Shown here in pieces: positions 4,079 through 34,955 of a stretch of DNA of 64,000 bases. The translations under genes and the position numbers were made by a program. Positions within the stretch are counted from its first letter, which is position 1. The number at the start of each line of letters is the position of its first letter. Under the pieces are notes generated by a model. The model was given only the letters and a program-made list of their open reading frames with translations. It was not told the origin of the DNA and searched no databases. The DNA comes from Alphaproteobacteria bacterium UBA6149 (GTDB lineage Bacteria > Pseudomonadota > Alphaproteobacteria > Rickettsiales > UBA998): the NCBI GenBank assembly GCA_002423155.1, contig DIUV01000048.1, forward strand, positions 517-64,516. Direction: 5' to 3'.

Positions 4079-4720
4079 CTATATATTCAAAAAATTAGTT
4101 AGTATTTTATCGCCGAGTTTTTGGCTTTTTTCAGGATGGAATTGGGTGCCATAGAGGTTATCTTGGGCAATTATGGCGGTTATTTTCTCGCCATGTTCGG
4201 TGCTGGCGATTACCTCTTGAGGGTTTTCGCAGATTGCATGATAGCTATGCACAAAATAGGCATGTTCGCCTTCGTGGATGTTTTTTAATAGGGGGTGTTG
4301 GGGATTATCTAACAGAAGATTATTCCAGCCCATATGGGGGATTTTTAGTTTTCCGTTCTTTGAATCCATGGAGCGTACTGAGCCTTTTATCCAGCCGAGT
4401 CCTTGGTGTTTTCCGTGTTCATAGCCATATTCAAGCATCATTTGCATGCCTACGCAGATGCCGAGAAAGGGAATTTTGTTTTCTAAAACTTGTTTATTTA
4501 ATTCCTCACGCATTCCTTTTAGGGCACATAATCCGTTCATACAATCAGCAAAAGCACCCACTCCGGGAAGAATTATATGGCTGGTATTTTGTAAGTCACT
4601 TGCTTTTGAGGTAAGTAGGAGTGAATCCTCATGCGCTATACGTTTTAAGGCTGCCATTACGGAATGTAAATTTCCTGCGCCATAGTCGATAATTGCGATT
4701 TTCTTGGTAGGAGAAATCAT
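4079..4720 (-). CDS. hisH: imidazole glycerol phosphate synthase, glutamine amidotransferase subunit
   Basis: IAIIDYGAGNLHSV, GVGAF, catalytic GICVGMQ, and FHPEKS at the C-terminus. Confidence 0.9.
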   Translation of the reverse strand: MISPTKKIAIIDYGAGNLHSVMAALKRIAHEDSLLLTSKASDLQNTSHIILPGVGAFADCMNGLCALKGMREELNKQVLENKIPFLGICVGMQMMLEYGYEHGKHQGLGWIKGSVRSMDSKNGKLKIPHMGWNNLLLDNPQHPLLKNIHEGEHAYFVHSYHAICENPQEVIASTEHGEKITAIIAQDNLYGTQFHPEKSQKLGDKILTNFLNI

Positions 4721-14515: not shown

Positions 14516-17500
14516 TTATGCAATAGCTTCAAAGTCGCCAACACTAAAGCTATAGCTACCACCACCATTGGAATAGTTATCAATAGTGAGAATATGTACG
14601 CCAACTCCTGCTCCATTAGCATCGGCATCGTAATATACACCGCCATTAGCAACGTCATATATAAAGGTTGCGGTAGCGCTGGTGGAATTATGCACCCCGT
14701 TAGTTGCAATCATATCCGCCGAAGTGAGCGCAACACCAGCAAATGCGCTGCCAAAGTTAAAGACTGAATCAGAGAAACGAATTGTATCCGCACCCGCAGT
14801 TTTAAAGTCAGTCACATGGTCAACCCCACCACCTGGAGCTACAAAGAAGTCCAGACGATCATTACCTGCTCCACCTGTTAGCGTATCTACACCATTACCA
14901 CCAATGATAGTATCGTTGCCATTACCGCCAGTGATTGAGCTAGCATTACCATTGGCAATATAAACAACACTGTTTGAACCATCCGCGAGATTAGCCGTAA
15001 CAATATTATCGCTAGTGTCGGTTAATACCAGATGGTTGGTAGTGGTAAGATTGGCAGCTGTAATAGTCGTCGCTGTGCTTGCTCCATTTAAGTCCAAAGT
15101 TAGGGTTTTTACGCCACTAACAGCATCCAAATTGCCAATTTCTGTGTTGGCATTGGTGCTGAATATTAAGGAGTTAGTACCAGAAGCACCAGTTAGTTTG
15201 ATGGTTTCGATAGTGGATATATTAGCCCATGTTGTGTCAGCAATGGTCAATCCGCCATTATTAGCATCATCAATAACCAAAACATCGTTGCCAGTGCCAC
15301 CAGCAATACTGTCTGTTGACGCGAGATTTGCATCATTAATGGTAATTAGGTCTTCATCTGCTCCACCGTTTATAGAGTCAACCCCTGTGCCAGCGGTAAT
15401 TGTATCATTGCCCGCATCTGCAGTTACGGTAACACCCGACTTAACTACAGTAGTAAGGTTAATCGTATCTGCAGCTGCTGTACCTTGTAAGGTTAGGCTG
15501 TTTTCACTACCAGAAATTAATCCCAAGTTAGTTGTGCTCGTGTTAGCAACATCGGTAACAATAATATCTACCGTGCCATTAACAGTAAGATTATCTGCCT
15601 GAGTTGCGGTTAGTGTAAACGAATTGGTGGTTGCCGTTACGCTGCTAATGCCAGCGGTTAGCACTGCTGCAATACCCGCAGTTAAATTAGTGCCCGTATC
15701 AGACACTGCAACCGAACCACCAGCGGAAGTAGAGAAAGTCAATCCAGTAGCTTCTGCTACGGTAAGTGTTGCTGCATCGGTGATAATTCCTACAGCAGTA
15801 ACACCAGTAGCGCGAATGGTAGCAATACCAGAATCTACGTTAGAGCCAGTATCGCTGATTGTACCAGTTATAGTACCTGTGGTTAGTGCGTCAATGCTCG
15901 CCAAGTCTGCCACATTCACTGTGCCAGTGATGGCAACATTCACTGAGCCAGTTACATAACCACCAGCGTTAGTAATTAAAGTGGCACTAGCATCAGAGAT
16001 GGCAGTGTAAGTAACTGTATCCGCTGCTGCATCAATATCAGTTATTTGCGCGATAGTTGCGGCATCACTTACCGTAGCATCATGCCCAGCGGTAACGTAA
16101 GTACCTGCACCAGCATTAGTGGCAGCATCAGTTGCAAGGTTGAGGGCCGTATCAGTAACGCTTGTATAGGTAACTGTATCTGCTGCGGCATTAATAGCAA
16201 CTAATTGTGCTAGTGATGCAGTAGTATTTACGGTTACGTCATGCCCAGCGGCAACGTAAGTACCTGCACCAGCATTAGTAGCGGCATCAGTTGCAAGGTT
16301 AGTTGCCGAGTCAGTAACGGTTGTATAAGTAACTGTATCTGCTGCGGCATCAATAGCGGTTAATTGAGCTATTGTTGCAGTAGTATTTACGGTTACGTTA
16401 TGCCCAGCGGTAACGTAAGTACCTGCACCAGCATTAGTAGCGGCATCCGCGGCTAAGTTGGAGGCTGAGTCTGTGATGGAATAAGCCAATGTACCAGTGG
16501 TATAACCATCTATTGTTCCTACTTGAGCTACGGTAGCTGCATCAGTAAAGGTAACATTTACTGCGCCAGTTACAATTGTACCAGCATCGGTCAGTAGGTT
16601 AGCTGTGCTGTCAGAGATGGCAGTGTAAGTAACTACGGTTGCTGCCGCAATAATAATTGTCAATTCTGCAACACTTGCCGTGGTGCTAACAGTTGCATTA
16701 TAACCAGTATCATCAATAACTTTGCTATCGAATGAAGCAATAGTTGTGCTAGCTGTAATGCCAGAACGTACAAAAGTTGCGGTTCCTGCTGCTATAGAAA
16801 TGGTAATATCGCCAGTAGCTGTTCCGCCAAAAGTTAAATGACCAGCAGTATCTGTAACTGTAAAGGTGGTGCTACTTCCGCCACCACCACCGCCACCACC
16901 GCCAGATCCACCGCTAGATCCACCAGTTGCGCCATTTGATTGCGCGATATTTACTAGAGCAGTTATTGCGTTAGTGCCGCTATCGATTGCAGCATTTAAA
17001 GGGGTGAATACATCTTCGTTGAATAAATCTAATAGCCCCTGTACATCGCCAGAGGTGATTTCTGCTGCAGCATCTGAGTGCGTGCGAACATAACCAGCCA
17101 TGCTAAAAAGAGAAGAGGGGTCACGTTGTTCTAATATACCATATTGTAGCCAATGTAATAATGGGTTGATACCAGCAGCAGCAACATCGGTATTATGATT
17201 TAGGTAATAATTCATGTTGAATAATGCATTAGGAGTGCGATGTTCGTTCACGCCATAATTAATCCAATGTTCAAAAGCGTCTATTCCCGCAGCAGCCACG
17301 TCGGTGTTTTGTTGTAAGTAATAAGAGATATTGAAAAAAGGAGACGGGTCACGAGTCTCAAGAGAGCCAAAATTATTGAAATGGTCTAATGGGTTTATGC
17401 CAGCAGAATTTACGTCTGTATTATTTTGTAAATAGAAAAGTGTATTAAAGAACGGGCTGGGATTACGTCCCTCATGCCAACCGTACAAGTTGTAATGTAC

Positions 17501-30313: not shown

Positions 30314-30529
30314 CACACGACAGTACTATTAATAAAAGCACTACATATTGATATATAACGTATCTTTATAATAAATATATCCATCGTCATCACCGTCGAA
30401 AGACGGTATCCATGCCTATCAACTAGCTGAAAAGCCAATGGTTTGGCATAGATGCCGCTCTACGTGCTGCATGACAAAGGAGAGTTTTATTGTAAAAAGA
30501 CAAAATTAACGATTGGTGCTTTTGCCCTG
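30314..30529. repeat. modular hairpin repeat element (hybrid ends)
   Basis: The left end is CACACGACAGTACTATTAATAA, the core hairpin spans about 30385-30475, and the right end is ...AAAAAGACAAAATTAACGATTGGTGCTTTTGCCCTG. Confidence 0.85.
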
Positions 30530-30568: not shown

Positions 30569-31756
30569 CTATCTCCCCAAATGCGGCGGCACATAGCTAT
30601 AATCCCCTTCCGACAAAGCTCCATATCTTCTCCGCGTAAAGCCTAATAGCATCCCAACACCTAGCGCAACACCGATTAATGAAGAACCGCCATAAGAAAT
30701 GAACGGCAAAGTCATCCCCTTAGCGGGTAATAAATTCACTGCCACGCCCATATTTATGATTGATTGCATACCAAATTGGGTTAAAATTCCGGCGGCGGCC
30801 AGCATAACGAATAAGTCCGACTCACGCCATATACGGTAAAAACCACGCATAATTACTGCGGCAAATAATAATACTATGCCTAACGCCATGAACATGCCGA
30901 ACTCCTCCCCCGCGACTGCGAAAATAAAATCGGTATGCGAATCAGGAATTTGCCATTTTACCACGCCTTCACCAGGACCTTTGCCAAATATTCCGCCACT
31001 TTGGAAAGCTTCCAATGCTTTAGAAACTTGATAATTATCGCCCACGGAAGGGTCTAAAAATTCATTTATGCGCTTGGTAACATGGGGAAGAAAACTATAA
31101 GCACCAACTACGCCAACCATGCCAATTGCCCCCATAATCGCCACCCAAACAAAGGACACCCCCGATAAAAATAACTGCACTCCAAACATACAGGTTAGAG
31201 TAAAAGACATGCCAAAATCAGGCTGGATAATGAGTAAAACAATGGAAATAACATAAATAGCAATGGAAATAATATATCCAGGAAAATCAACAATCCGTTG
31301 CCGTTCCGACATCATCCACGCAACCAGCACCGCAAAACAAGGCTTTAAAAATTCCGAGGGTTGCAAAGACATGCCCGCAATATTTATCCAGCGTTTTGCC
31401 CCCTTATTTTCAAAGCCTATGACCGGCAAAAGCATCATCACAATCAGGCTACCCATGAATGCCAGCACCGCCAAACGACGAATTTGCTGCACAGGCAACA
31501 TAGAAACACCAATGACAACAAAAACCGATAATATTAAAAAAACCTGCTGACGAATTACGAAATAAAATGGATCTAATTTAATCCTTGCCGCCACAGGTGG
31601 GCTACCTGCCGTCACCAGCAATGCCCCCAAAGCAACCAGCACACCAAACAAAAACAGGTTCACCCGATCCACCGTCCACCACCATCTACCCAAAGCGGAA
31701 GTATTAGTACGATCAAAATTTATACGATTGCGTGGTTTCATTTTTATTTTTTTCAA
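30569..31756 (-). CDS. ftsW: cell division SEDS protein FtsW
   Basis: 395 aa with 10 TM segments, plus QPSEFLK, PDSHTDFIFAVAGEEFG and LPFISYGGSS motifs. Confidence 0.9.
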   Translation of the reverse strand: MKKIKMKPRNRINFDRTNTSALGRWWWTVDRVNLFLFGVLVALGALLVTAGSPPVAARIKLDPFYFVIRQQVFLILSVFVVIGVSMLPVQQIRRLAVLAFMGSLIVMMLLPVIGFENKGAKRWINIAGMSLQPSEFLKPCFAVLVAWMMSERQRIVDFPGYIISIAIYVISIVLLIIQPDFGMSFTLTCMFGVQLFLSGVSFVWVAIMGAIGMVGVVGAYSFLPHVTKRINEFLDPSVGDNYQVSKALEAFQSGGIFGKGPGEGVVKWQIPDSHTDFIFAVAGEEFGMFMALGIVLLFAAVIMRGFYRIWRESDLFVMLAAAGILTQFGMQSIINMGVAVNLLPAKGMTLPFISYGGSSLIGVALGVGMLLGFTRRRYGALSEGDYSYVPPHLGR

Positions 31757-32049
31757 GTTAGTAAGGTCTGAATATTTCTAAACCCACTTAATACTCTGAC
31801 AATATAAATTGGTTTAGCACTCGCCTCATATATAATAAGATAGTTATAAACTTTCCAGAAGCGAACGTTACGATCTGTCAAATCATCACGTTTATGCCCA
31901 GTAAGAGGGTAATTTTCCAACAATTCAAAGGCAGAAAATATTTTATCTATCACTTTCTCTGCGGCAAAAACATTATCTTGCGCAATAAAATCCTGAATTT
32001 CTATTAAATCAATTCGCGCATCAGGAGAAAGATTTACGTTAAGATTCAT
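31753..32049 (-). CDS. parE: type II toxin ParE/RelE family
   Basis: 98 aa starting at ATG 32049 (MNLNVNLSPDARIDLIEIQDFIAQDN...YLIIYE...IYIVRVLSGFRNI). It overlaps parD by 11 nt and the ftsW start by 4 nt. Confidence 0.8.
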   Translation of the reverse strand: MNLNVNLSPDARIDLIEIQDFIAQDNVFAAEKVIDKIFSAFELLENYPLTGHKRDDLTDRNVRFWKVYNYLIIYEASAKPIYIVRVLSGFRNIQTLLT

Positions 32050-32296
32050 TTCTACGCTGCATAAGTTCTTGGTACACATCATTGCCAGAAACAAACAAAC
32101 CAGCATTCAACGAAGATAGCCCCTTATCAATTTCTACATTTAACCATTCAAGATTGTTCTTAGCAGCTTGCTCATGCTCAGCAAGCAGACGCAGACCATC
32201 CAACACCACCTCATTAGCAGAATGATAAAATCCTCTAGCTATTTGAGAATTGATAAAATTTTCAAATTCTGGGGTTAGCGATATATTCATAAGCAA
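32039..32296 (-). CDS. parD: type II antitoxin ParD (CC2985/COG3609 type)
   Basis: MNISLTPEFENFINSQIARGFYHSANEVVLDGLRLL is the ribbon-helix-helix N-terminus typical of ParD. Confidence 0.8.
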   Translation of the reverse strand: MLMNISLTPEFENFINSQIARGFYHSANEVVLDGLRLLAEHEQAAKNNLEWLNVEIDKGLSSLNAGLFVSGNDVYQELMQRRNES

Positions 32297-32357
32297 ATCC
32301 TAATAATATCTCCTACCATTCTAACATAACCCATCAAATTATCAACCGTAACTGCTA

Positions 32358-32555
32358 CAGGGCAATTTCACCAATCGTTAATTTTGATATTTTTTCACTA
32401 AAACATCTCTTGTCATACAGCACGAAGAGCGGTATCCATGCCTATAAACTAGCGTAGAAGCTAATGGTTTGGCATGGATGCCGCTCTACGTGCTGCATGA
32501 CAATGGAGAGTTTTATTACAAAAAGACAAATTTAACGATTGGTAAAATTGCCCTG
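32358..32555. mobile_element. full-length ~198-bp MITE-like palindromic element with a 10-bp target-site duplication
   Basis: Terminal inverted repeats are CAGGGCAATTTCACCAATCGTTAATTTTG... and ...AAATTTAACGATTGGTAAAATTGCCCTG. It is flanked by GTAACTGCTA (32348-32357) and GTAATTGCTA (32556-32565). The present murD stop lies inside it. Confidence 0.85.
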
Positions 32556-33860
32556 GTAATTGCTAACCAACTCCCGAAAAGCATCTCCACGAGCTTCAAA
32601 ACCGCTCCATTGGTCAAAGCTCGCCGCTGCTGGTGACAGCAAGATAACTGCTTTATCGCTTGAATTTTTTGCCATTTCTGTGGCAGTGCGCGTGGCATTT
32701 TCTAAAGTTTCGCAATTAGTATATGCTAATTTTCCCTCTAAAGTTTTAGCAAACTCTTCCGCGGAAGCACCAATTAAAAATGCATGCTTAATCTGGGGGA
32801 AATATTTTTCCAAGCTGGTAATGCCGCCTTCTTTTGCCAACCCACCAACAATCCAATAAACATTCTGATCATAAGTGTTAAGCGCACATACCGTAGATTC
32901 AGCATTGGTTGCTTTGCTATCATTCACATATAAAATGCCATTTTTGTCGCAAACTCTTTCCATACGATGCGGCAAACCAGCAAAACTCTGCATGGCAGCA
33001 TAAATATCTTCCAAATCCAGCCCTAATGCGCGACAAGCTGCCGCTGCTATTTGTGCATTTTGCCAATTATGCTTGCCTTGCAGCCCCAAACAGTTACGCA
33101 AAGAAAATTCTTTATCATCATCTTTGATTACTTCATCTGCATGTACTTCCATCACTAAATCTTCGGGCAATTTTTTTGCTATTTTCTGGCAATATTCATC
33201 ATCACCAGCGATTACGGCAATATGTTCACCCGCTACTTGACCAGCAAAAATACGTTCTTTTGCAGCAATATAACCTGCCATTCCATCATGCCGATCCAAA
33301 TGGTCGGGAGTGATATTGGTAAGGCAAGCAATATCAAATACCGAGTTAGATAATAAATCTAATTGATAAGAGGACATCTCTAAAACATAAACTTCGCCCT
33401 CGCCCAACATTTCTAATGCCAATGCAGGAGTACCCAAATTACCGCCTATTTGTACCGTGGATTCCTCCCCTTCAATATTTTTAAGAATATGCCCAATTAA
33501 GGCAGTGGTGGTCGATTTTCCGTTAGTTCCGGTAATGCCAACAAAAAAAGCTTCAGGGCAAGCTTCAAATAACAATTCAACTTCGCCAACAATGCGAACA
33601 TTATGTTTTTGCGCCAACGCCAAAACAGGATGCATTTTTGCACATTTATAGGGAACTCCAGGGCTGGCAACCACTATGGATAATTCTTCCCACGGCCAAT
33701 TATTATAATCATCGCCCAAATTTTCATGATTGGTTATTTTATCATCCCAAACAAAAACCTCAGCCCCACTTGCACGCAATGCCTCTACCGCCGCTTGCCC
33801 TGCTTTTCCCAAACCTAAAACGGCGGTTTTTTTATCCGTATATTTTTTTAATTCTATCAT
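32532..33860 (-). CDS. murD: UDP-N-acetylmuramoylalanine--D-glutamate ligase
   Basis: VLGLGKAG, GITGTNGKST and DSKATN motifs. The start is taken at ATG 33860 (MIELKKY), and the track's 33890 is possible. The last 7 codons (QGNFTNR) and the stop are encoded by the inserted repeat. Confidence 0.9.
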   Translation of the reverse strand: MIELKKYTDKKTAVLGLGKAGQAAVEALRASGAEVFVWDDKITNHENLGDDYNNWPWEELSIVVASPGVPYKCAKMHPVLALAQKHNVRIVGEVELLFEACPEAFFVGITGTNGKSTTTALIGHILKNIEGEESTVQIGGNLGTPALALEMLGEGEVYVLEMSSYQLDLLSNSVFDIACLTNITPDHLDRHDGMAGYIAAKERIFAGQVAGEHIAVIAGDDEYCQKIAKKLPEDLVMEVHADEVIKDDDKEFSLRNCLGLQGKHNWQNAQIAAAACRALGLDLEDIYAAMQSFAGLPHRMERVCDKNGILYVNDSKATNAESTVCALNTYDQNVYWIVGGLAKEGGITSLEKYFPQIKHAFLIGASAEEFAKTLEGKLAYTNCETLENATRTATEMAKNSSDKAVILLSPAAASFDQWSGFEARGDAFRELVSNYQGNFTNR

Positions 33861-33898
33861 TTTTATTTCGCCTTTAGAACCTGAGCACAATCTTTTTA

Positions 33899-34093
33899 CA
33901 GGGCGATTTCACCAATCGTTAATTTTGTCTTTTTTCACTAAAATATCTCTTGTCATACCGCCGCAGGGCGGTATCCATGCCTATCAACTGGCGTACAAGT
34001 CAATGGTTTGGCATGGATACCGCCCTGCGGCGGTATGACAATGGCGAATTTTATCGCAAAAAGACAAAATTAACGACTGGTGAAATCGCCCTG
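33899..34093. mobile_element. full-length 195-bp MITE-like palindromic element with a perfect 10-bp target-site duplication
   Basis: CAGGGCGATTTCACCAATCGTTAATTTTGTCTTTTTT ... AAAAAGACAAAATTAACGACTGGTGAAATCGCCCTG. It is flanked by AATCTTTTTA at 33889-33898 and 34094-34103. Confidence 0.9.
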
Positions 34094-34102
34094 AATCTTT
34101 TT

Positions 34103-34220
34103 ATTTCGGCAATTTTTCTCAATTTTGAGCGAAAATAGCAAGATAATTCGAAGCAATAGCTGTTCTATTGCAAGAATTATCTTGCTATTTGCAGCCAAAA
34201 TTGGGGAAAATGGGCAAATA
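34103..34220. repeat. about 115-bp imperfect palindrome, unrelated in sequence to the main family
   Basis: The arms are TTTCTCAATTTTGAGCGAAAATAGCAAGATAATTCGAAGCAATAG and CTATTGCAAGAATTATCTTGCTATTTGCAGCCAAAATTGGGGAAA, centred near 34162. It lies 3' of ubiG. Confidence 0.8.
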
Positions 34221-34232
34221 AAAAGATTGTGA

Positions 34233-34955
34233 TCAGGTTCTTACATAAGCAATCAAATAATTAACATCCACATCCTTAGATAAACTCCAAACATCTTTAA
34301 AGGGATTCCAAACCATACCTCGTAAATCTTCAAAATTCATCCCTTGTTTGCGCACCAGCTCATCAATCTCACTCGGACGCAAAAATTTCCGCCAATTATG
34401 TGTGCCACGCGGCAACCAGCGCAGGATATATTCCGCCCCCACAATCGCCAAAGCAAAAGATTTCGCTGTGCGGTTCATGGTCGATAGCACCAACAAACCA
34501 CCGGGGCGCACCAGACCAGTGCAAGCTTTTAAGAAACTTTCTACATCTGCCACATGTTCTATAATTTCCAAAGCCAGCACTACATCAAATTGCTGCCCTT
34601 CTGCGGCTAACATTTCTGCCGCCGCCACTTGATAATTTATATCTAAATTAGATGTTTGCGCATGTATTTTAGCGACCGCAATGTTTTTTTCCGACGCATC
34701 CACACCGCAAACTTTACCGCCTAAACGGGCTAAAGGCTCACAAACTAATCCCCCGCCACAACCAATATCCAATATTGACAAACCAGATAATCCGCCAAAT
34801 TTTTTGCTAGCAAGTTCATTGATATAGCCAACGCGCACGGGATTTATCTGATGTAGCGGACGAAATTTTCCACGCACATCCCACCATTCATCAGCAATGC
34901 GCGAGAATCGCTCTACTTCTTCTGCATCTACAGAAATTGCTTCTTTTAAATCCAT
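34233..34955 (-). CDS. ubiG: ubiquinone biosynthesis O-methyltransferase
   Basis: WWD..G.F.PLH.INP.R plus the SAM-binding ILDIGCGGGLVCEPLARLG. Confidence 0.9.
   Translation of the reverse strand: MDLKEAISVDAEEVERFSRIADEWWDVRGKFRPLHQINPVRVGYINELASKKFGGLSGLSILDIGCGGGLVCEPLARLGGKVCGVDASEKNIAVAKIHAQTSNLDINYQVAAAEMLAAEGQQFDVVLALEIIEHVADVESFLKACTGLVRPGGLLVLSTMNRTAKSFALAIVGAEYILRWLPRGTHNWRKFLRPSEIDELVRKQGMNFEDLRGMVWNPFKDVWSLSKDVDVNYLIAYVRT

Follow-up and report, generated by a model that had tools for sequence, protein, structure and literature searches.

The 64,000-nt stretch of DNA analyzed here (hereafter the window) carries on its minus strand a murD gene of 442 codons plus stop (32532–33860; ATG at 33860, stop codon at 32532–32534), whose 3′ end is occupied by a repeat element of 198 bp, copy A (32358–32555), recognized by sequence reading and BLAST as a near-palindrome devoid of a transposase ORF. 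The element is bounded by 24-nt terminal inverted repeats, one of which (32532–32555, minus strand) supplies murD codons 436–442 (QGNFTNR) and the TAA stop, the opposite one lying at 32358–32381 on the plus strand; the two ends read CAGGGCAATTTCACCAATCGTTAA and, reverse-complemented, CAGGGCAATTTTACCAATCGTTAA, and are identical at 23 of 24 positions. Copy A is flanked by a 10-bp target-site duplication (GTAAYTGCTA), whose copy within murD, GTAATTGCTA (32556–32565), comprises the last base of a Val codon and the Ser-Asn-Tyr codons, and whose downstream copy, GTAACTGCTA (32348–32357), matches it at nine of ten positions. At the local base composition, the chance that two abutting 10-mers match at nine or more positions is ~4e-5. 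The sequence-only reading of this DNA had described a 10-bp duplication with one mismatch, which is hence borne out, and our re-reading of positions 32200–32700 returned the same coordinates for the element, the duplication and the stop codons throughout.

When searched with up to three mismatches, the 24-nt terminal repeat was found five times within the window, against an expectation of zero derived from shuffled sequences. The two arms of copy A (96 nt each) are 77% complementary, and the murD-sense RNA of the element with both duplicates is predicted to fold into a single hairpin (-115.8 kcal/mol, z = -17.7). An Rfam scan of the whole window matched 0 families. With 198 bp and short ORFs only, copy A falls within the size range of MITEs (< ~600 bp).

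The in-silico excision of copy A together with one duplicate restored a 436-aa MurD ending in ELVSNYG, followed by TGA (32342–32344, minus strand) and by TAA as the next codon in frame; according to this reconstruction, TGA is the ancestral murD stop, now stranded downstream of copy A. The present protein ends in ELVSNYQGNFTNR and is followed by TAA, its final seven codons and stop lying inside the terminal repeat of copy A. In the predicted empty-site allele, murD would run straight into GGTTGATAA, with the junction GTTAGCA(A/G)TTACGGTTGATAA. Since the reconstructed Gly436 aligns with the final residue of E. coli MurD (1e0d, 437 aa) in an ungapped alignment, this comparison identifies ...VSNYG as a canonical MurD end and places the seven new residues beyond the solved fold. 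The native end ...VSNYG-TGA and the origin of the last seven codons and stop from the terminal inverted repeat had both been proposed from the sequence alone, and both withstood the analysis, the former through the excision and the E. coli alignment, the latter through the ORF at 32532–33860.

The closest MurD relatives outside the source organism are 51–58% identical to the window protein, and the QGNFTNR tail was found in 0 of 32 MurD relatives, so the proposal also survives a check for relatives sharing the tail without the repeat. These relatives terminate 2–38 residues past the conserved LV of the RGDxF..LV motif, and the residues invariant among MurD homologues are all present in the window MurD. 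By sequence comparison, the net change of one residue lost (Gly) and seven gained is a mild alteration in a tail that is variable among relatives, and the new tail is presumably neutral. The insertion is indeed tolerated in an essential gene, as had been claimed, but this is less remarkable than it seemed, only the final Gly having been lost from a region of such variable length. The locus offers a clean, fully reconstructible case in which a mobile element has given a core gene of peptidoglycan synthesis a new C-terminus and stop codon; how MurD and transposition are understood is unchanged by it.

Copy A belongs to a family. It was compared by BLAST with the window, and a search with the peptide of a small ORF that it contains uncovered L086 and L088, two more contigs of the same samples, bringing the sequence examined for the same organism to ~100 kb. 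This amount of sequence holds five full copies, one truncated copy and several copies of the core only. Copy B (33899–34093) is an intergenic copy upstream of murD, 38 nt from the ATG, with a perfect duplication AATCTTTTTA at 33889–33898 and 34094–34103; copy C (40038–40230) lies in the 3′ end of tsaB, with a perfect duplication AAGAACAGAT at 40028–40037 and 40231–40240. The full copy on L086 (9423–9617) sits between divergent genes and has a perfect duplication ATGTGACAAT, and that on L088 (9924–10117), 42 nt after a GGDEF gene, has the duplication TAATTATTTT, one of its junctions carrying an additional base. Copy D (about 30378–30529) lacks the left arm, its right terminal repeat (30506–30529) following the ftsW stop at a distance of 39 nt. 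A duplication of ~10 bp flanks each of the five full copies, every time with an unrelated sequence; as the duplications differ between copies, they derive from the target and are attributable neither to the element nor to chance. The full copies are 81–96% identical, copy A being the most diverged (81–87% to the others). On account of this divergence and of its mismatched duplication, the murD insertion can be regarded, from sequence comparison, as old, and the family may be inactive today.

The insertion of copy C in tsaB, a sister case within the window overlooked by the sequence-only reading, altered its host gene in the same manner. The tsaB CDS (40207–40848, minus strand; TIGR03725, 121.8 bits) takes its last seven codons (QGKIINR) and stop from copy C and now ends in KKSVLQGKIINR followed by the stop, whereas its reconstruction ends in KKSVLPLGLPA with TAA at 40007–40009. 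Copy C therefore replaced the final six tsaB codons and stop (PLGLPA-stop) with QGKIINR-stop, using the same frame of the terminal repeat as in murD, and the tailed TsaB protein has entries from NCBI, JGI and ENA. The murD event is accordingly not unique, a second gene having been altered likewise within the same 64 kb. The reading is built into the element: frame 0 into the terminal repeats gives Q-G-x-x-x-x-R-stop in 10 out of 10 cases (five copies), and also in autonomous ISs, and the TTAA which provides the read-in stop holds, on the opposite strand at the right end, the stop codon of the IS transposase as well. The remaining entry frames run for 4–45 codons to a stop, and one frame is open throughout. 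The terminal repeat of one ISAs1 group thus inherently contains a read-in frame of seven codons and a stop, so that insertions near gene ends are cushioned; for annotation, C-terminal tails of the form QG-x-x-x-x-R in this lineage are to be recognized as element-derived.

The relationship with ISAs1-family insertion sequences emerged from the ends. The MITE termini, CAGGGC-A---CA--A-TCGTTAA, match IS ends in many Alphaproteobacteria. A scan for the degenerate terminus over 185,579 representative genomes, the source genome not being among them, returned 46 loci, of which ~16 share the consensus CAGGGCRAAATCATRAATCGTTAAC and come from a range of Alphaproteobacteria plus a few bacteria of other groups; the whole element was present at 0 of the 46 loci. 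The left end of copy C is identical at 24 of 24 positions to the terminus adjoining the 3′ end of an ISAs1 transposase gene on L049 (NF033564, 272 bits vs. a cutoff of 70). A complete IS of 1,199 bp on L031 has the same termini, encodes an ISAs1 transposase of full length (361 bits) and is flanked by a perfect duplication of 10 bp, CGGCAATAGA. In published data, the termini of ISArsp11, which belongs to the ISAs1 family, read CAGGGCTGATG..., and its direct repeat measures 10 bp (PMC6305408). Together with L045 and L007, these elements share with the window MITE the CAGGGC... termini, the 10-bp duplication and the TTAA holding the transposase stop; they differ from it in that the window element measures 198 bp, has no transposase and is built, around an independent palindrome, of an interior unrelated to theirs, the similarity between MITE and ISs being confined to the 24–27-nt ends. 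A Methylocystaceae MAG (L038, 4603–4758) contains another, unrelated MITE of 156 bp, again with these ISAs1-type termini and flanked by a perfect duplication of 10 bp, which shows that the IS group has given rise to miniature derivatives on more than one occasion. On structural grounds copy A classifies as a MITE whose source was an ISAs1-type IS. By tblastn, the window, L086 and L088 (~100 kb) revealed no gene for an ISAs1 transposase, and the element would have been mobilized in trans. ISAs1 goes unmentioned in a 2024 review of prokaryotic MITEs (PMC10969869), and in literature naming both "ISAs1" and "MITE" we found no description of an ISAs1-derived MITE; the link appears to be previously undescribed, and the present analysis documents a MITE family derived from ISAs1.

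The interpretation we favor, to which we assign a probability of nearly nine in ten, is that copy A is a non-autonomous MITE with ISAs1 ends, transposed into murD by a trans-acting ISAs1-type transposase. What is directly observed is how the element is built, its duplication and its family, the reconstruction of murD, the agreement with ISAs1 in termini and duplication length, and the reproducibility across assemblies. An ISAs1-type DDE transposase supplied in trans would have acted on the MITE and made a staggered cut of 10 bp, which reads TAGCA(A/G)TTAC in the sense of murD and ends at the second-to-last codon (Tyr); the element would have been inserted at the cut, and gap repair would have duplicated the 10 bp. 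Translation would then pass Tyr435 into the terminal repeat (Gln-Gly-Asn-Phe-Thr-Asn-Arg-stop), with Gly436 and the TGA-TAA stops pushed 208 bp downstream, and the insertion would be tolerated in that only the unconserved extreme C-terminal tail of MurD is affected. The proposal that a real transposition event had occurred here is upheld by the terminal inverted repeats, the 10-bp duplication and the multiple copies.

As no unoccupied site was found, we infer the mobility of the element from its structure. The two possible ancestral MurD proteins were absent from 15 billion sequences in an exact look-up, the 90%-identity cluster of MurD proteins held occupied alleles only and no empty-site allele, and a metagenome scan with a pattern for the murD 3′ end fitting both empty and occupied sites gave 0 matches. 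A contrast between an occupied and an empty site was thus not encountered in the assemblies or protein collections, a result compatible with mobility in the past. A further metagenome scan with a subterminal 19-mer returned 36 loci, which were all rejected as chance matches without the element.

Once in place, the insertion could have been retained for a function, its stop and hairpin of -116 kcal/mol stabilizing the 3′ end of the murD mRNA or insulating murD from the parDE-ftsW unit downstream. Such a role, which is compatible with an origin by transposition, seems unlikely to us. It would fit the very stable hairpin of copy A, the identity of the murD and tsaB insertions across all assemblies, and the location of the family members: two of the five full copies (murD, tsaB) lie in gene ends, in frame 0 and 1–6 codons from the native stop, the other three (copy B and those of L086 and L088) being intergenic, and a stop codon precedes two more copies, including the truncated copy D, by ~40 nt. 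The sample is however tiny and does not allow a target preference to be told apart from the survival of harmless insertions, and purifying selection alone would leave insertions just in intergenic positions and at extreme 3′ ends. A scan of the interior of copy A for promoters and terminators gave nothing above shuffle expectation, and the element has no terminator-like T-tract; the terminal repeat is moreover explained by transposase binding, since the autonomous ISs share the QG....R-stop reading.

The palindrome in the middle of the element also has a distribution of its own. Copies of ~100 bp consisting of the core only, with neither ISAs1 ends nor an obvious target duplication, occur in the window at 40908–41016 and 53483–53578, both intergenic, and at 15252–15374 of L086 and 20027–20159 of L088. 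A free-standing gene for a 96-aa GIY-YIG nuclease (57117–57407; PF01541, 54.6 bits), located between iscU-like and iscA-like genes, is bracketed (56949–57523) by two direct, 96%-identical copies of a ~108-bp palindrome corresponding to the core of the murD MITE. From its layout this unit looks like a separate mobile cassette, and the comparison suggests that the murD MITE is chimeric. It is conceivable, and in our estimation quite improbable, that a chimeric module of ISAs1 ends and an independent palindrome is preferentially kept in the final codons of genes, or directed there, as a "stop codon plus giant hairpin" cassette shaping mRNA 3′ ends in a genome with a fragmented cell-division cluster; if so, the indels of the JGI contig described below would represent real, hairpin-driven variation of the C-terminal tail.

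The same palindromes could be taken to mean that the element is of the REP/REPIN or RPE kind, spread for instance by a RAYT-type or GIY-YIG enzyme, with ISAs1-like ends by coincidence. The occurrence of the central ~100-bp palindrome on its own and the pair of copies around the nuclease gene speak for it, but the five full copies all end exactly at CAGGG...CCCTG with 10-bp duplications abutting, their 24-nt ends match bona fide ISAs1 termini at up to 24 of 24 positions, and the core-only copies have no obvious duplication, so that we hold this origin to be highly doubtful. REP/REPIN elements are short palindromes spread by the RAYT (Y1) transposase without target duplication, and a target duplication comparable to that of copy A is not known from REP or RPE elements; copy A departs from REP/REPIN elements in its 10-bp duplications and DDE-type termini. 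RPEs are internal in-frame insertions translated through as peptide segments (PMC10969869), whereas copy A stops translation after seven element codons. The analogy with RPEs drawn in the sequence-only reading stands insofar as both are small palindromic repeats within coding genes of an alphaproteobacterium, which they do not destroy (PMC10969869); it is loose in that the murD element lies at the extreme 3′ end, terminates translation and is a classical MITE, linked to a DDE family and having terminal inverted repeats as well as a 10-bp target duplication.

The junction between murD and the element is identical in three assemblies: the ENA contig L001 is 100% identical over 5.3 kb, the JGI contig L003 shows 99.95% identity over a length of 7.4 kb, and the Logan contig L002, seen in seven runs, breaks 5 nt beyond the TAA, inside the repeat, as expected for repeats. 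A misassembly, which would have overturned the earlier proposal, is therefore unlikely. The JGI contig carries at 4335–4490 (corresponding to window 32358–32555) four single-T insertions, its sole differences in 7.4 kb, all within copy A and none in homopolymer runs, the first of which shifts the frame and yields P0121, a protein of 458 aa ending in VSNYQGQFYQSLNLSFCNKTLLLSCST. Other JGI contigs agree with the ENA contigs within MITE copies, and the four insertions are probably artefactual; we considered the P0121 tail as evidence of an unconstrained tail and rejected it, the insertions being confined to one element in ~40 kb of near-identical sequence. That a multi-copy repeat was misjoined to murD from short reads, the true end being ...VSNYG, could draw on the repeated nature of the element, on the break in L002 and on these odd insertions limited to copy A, but it is barely credible given the agreement of three pipelines, the duplication on both flanks, which a chimeric join would not generate, and the absence of the ancestral-end protein from the 15-billion-sequence collection.

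With copy A understood as a transposed MITE, the donation of a gene 3′ end is an already known kind of event. In Coxiella burnetii, QMITE1 and QMITE2, which have terminal inverted repeats and direct repeats, overlap the 3′ ends of ubiB, pntAA, mutT, nagZ, recN and ruvB, functional genes whose last residues and/or stop they provide (Wachter et al., 2018; PMC5896051). The MITE-derived tail of Coxiella EnhC differs between strains through an indel (PMC5896051), a situation paralleled by the JGI variant P0121. The Coxiella elements reside in a gammaproteobacterial host and have no sequence relationship to the window element and no link to ISAs1; they are a closer precedent than the RPEs of Rickettsia. 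MITEPye1 of Paracoccus yeei (PMC11578231) is likewise small and lacks a transposase; it has direct repeats, terminal inverted repeats resembling those of its parent IS, and a long stem-loop as RNA, and differs in its parent family (IS1182) and in copies reported to be preferentially intergenic (PMC11578231).

The genes around murD form a fragmented cell-division and cell-wall cluster, in which ubiG and a MITE (33899–34955) take the place of mraY ahead of murD, and ddl-ftsQ-ftsA-ftsZ are located on a separate contig (L088, 1–4000). murD and ftsW are separated by a ParD/ParE toxin-antitoxin pair (31753–32345). The best promoter-like site of the region, TTGATA-16-TAGAAT with an upstream TG (32345–32318, minus strand), lies just downstream of copy A, where it overlaps the ancestral murD TGA-TAA. 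On L086 (8745–8871), compared with L087, the ENA and JGI assemblies differ in a tandem coding repeat of GCTGCCACTGCTGG-like units, within an ORF of 324 or 338 aa with no Pfam match on record; this is probably an ambiguity or a variation in repeat number.
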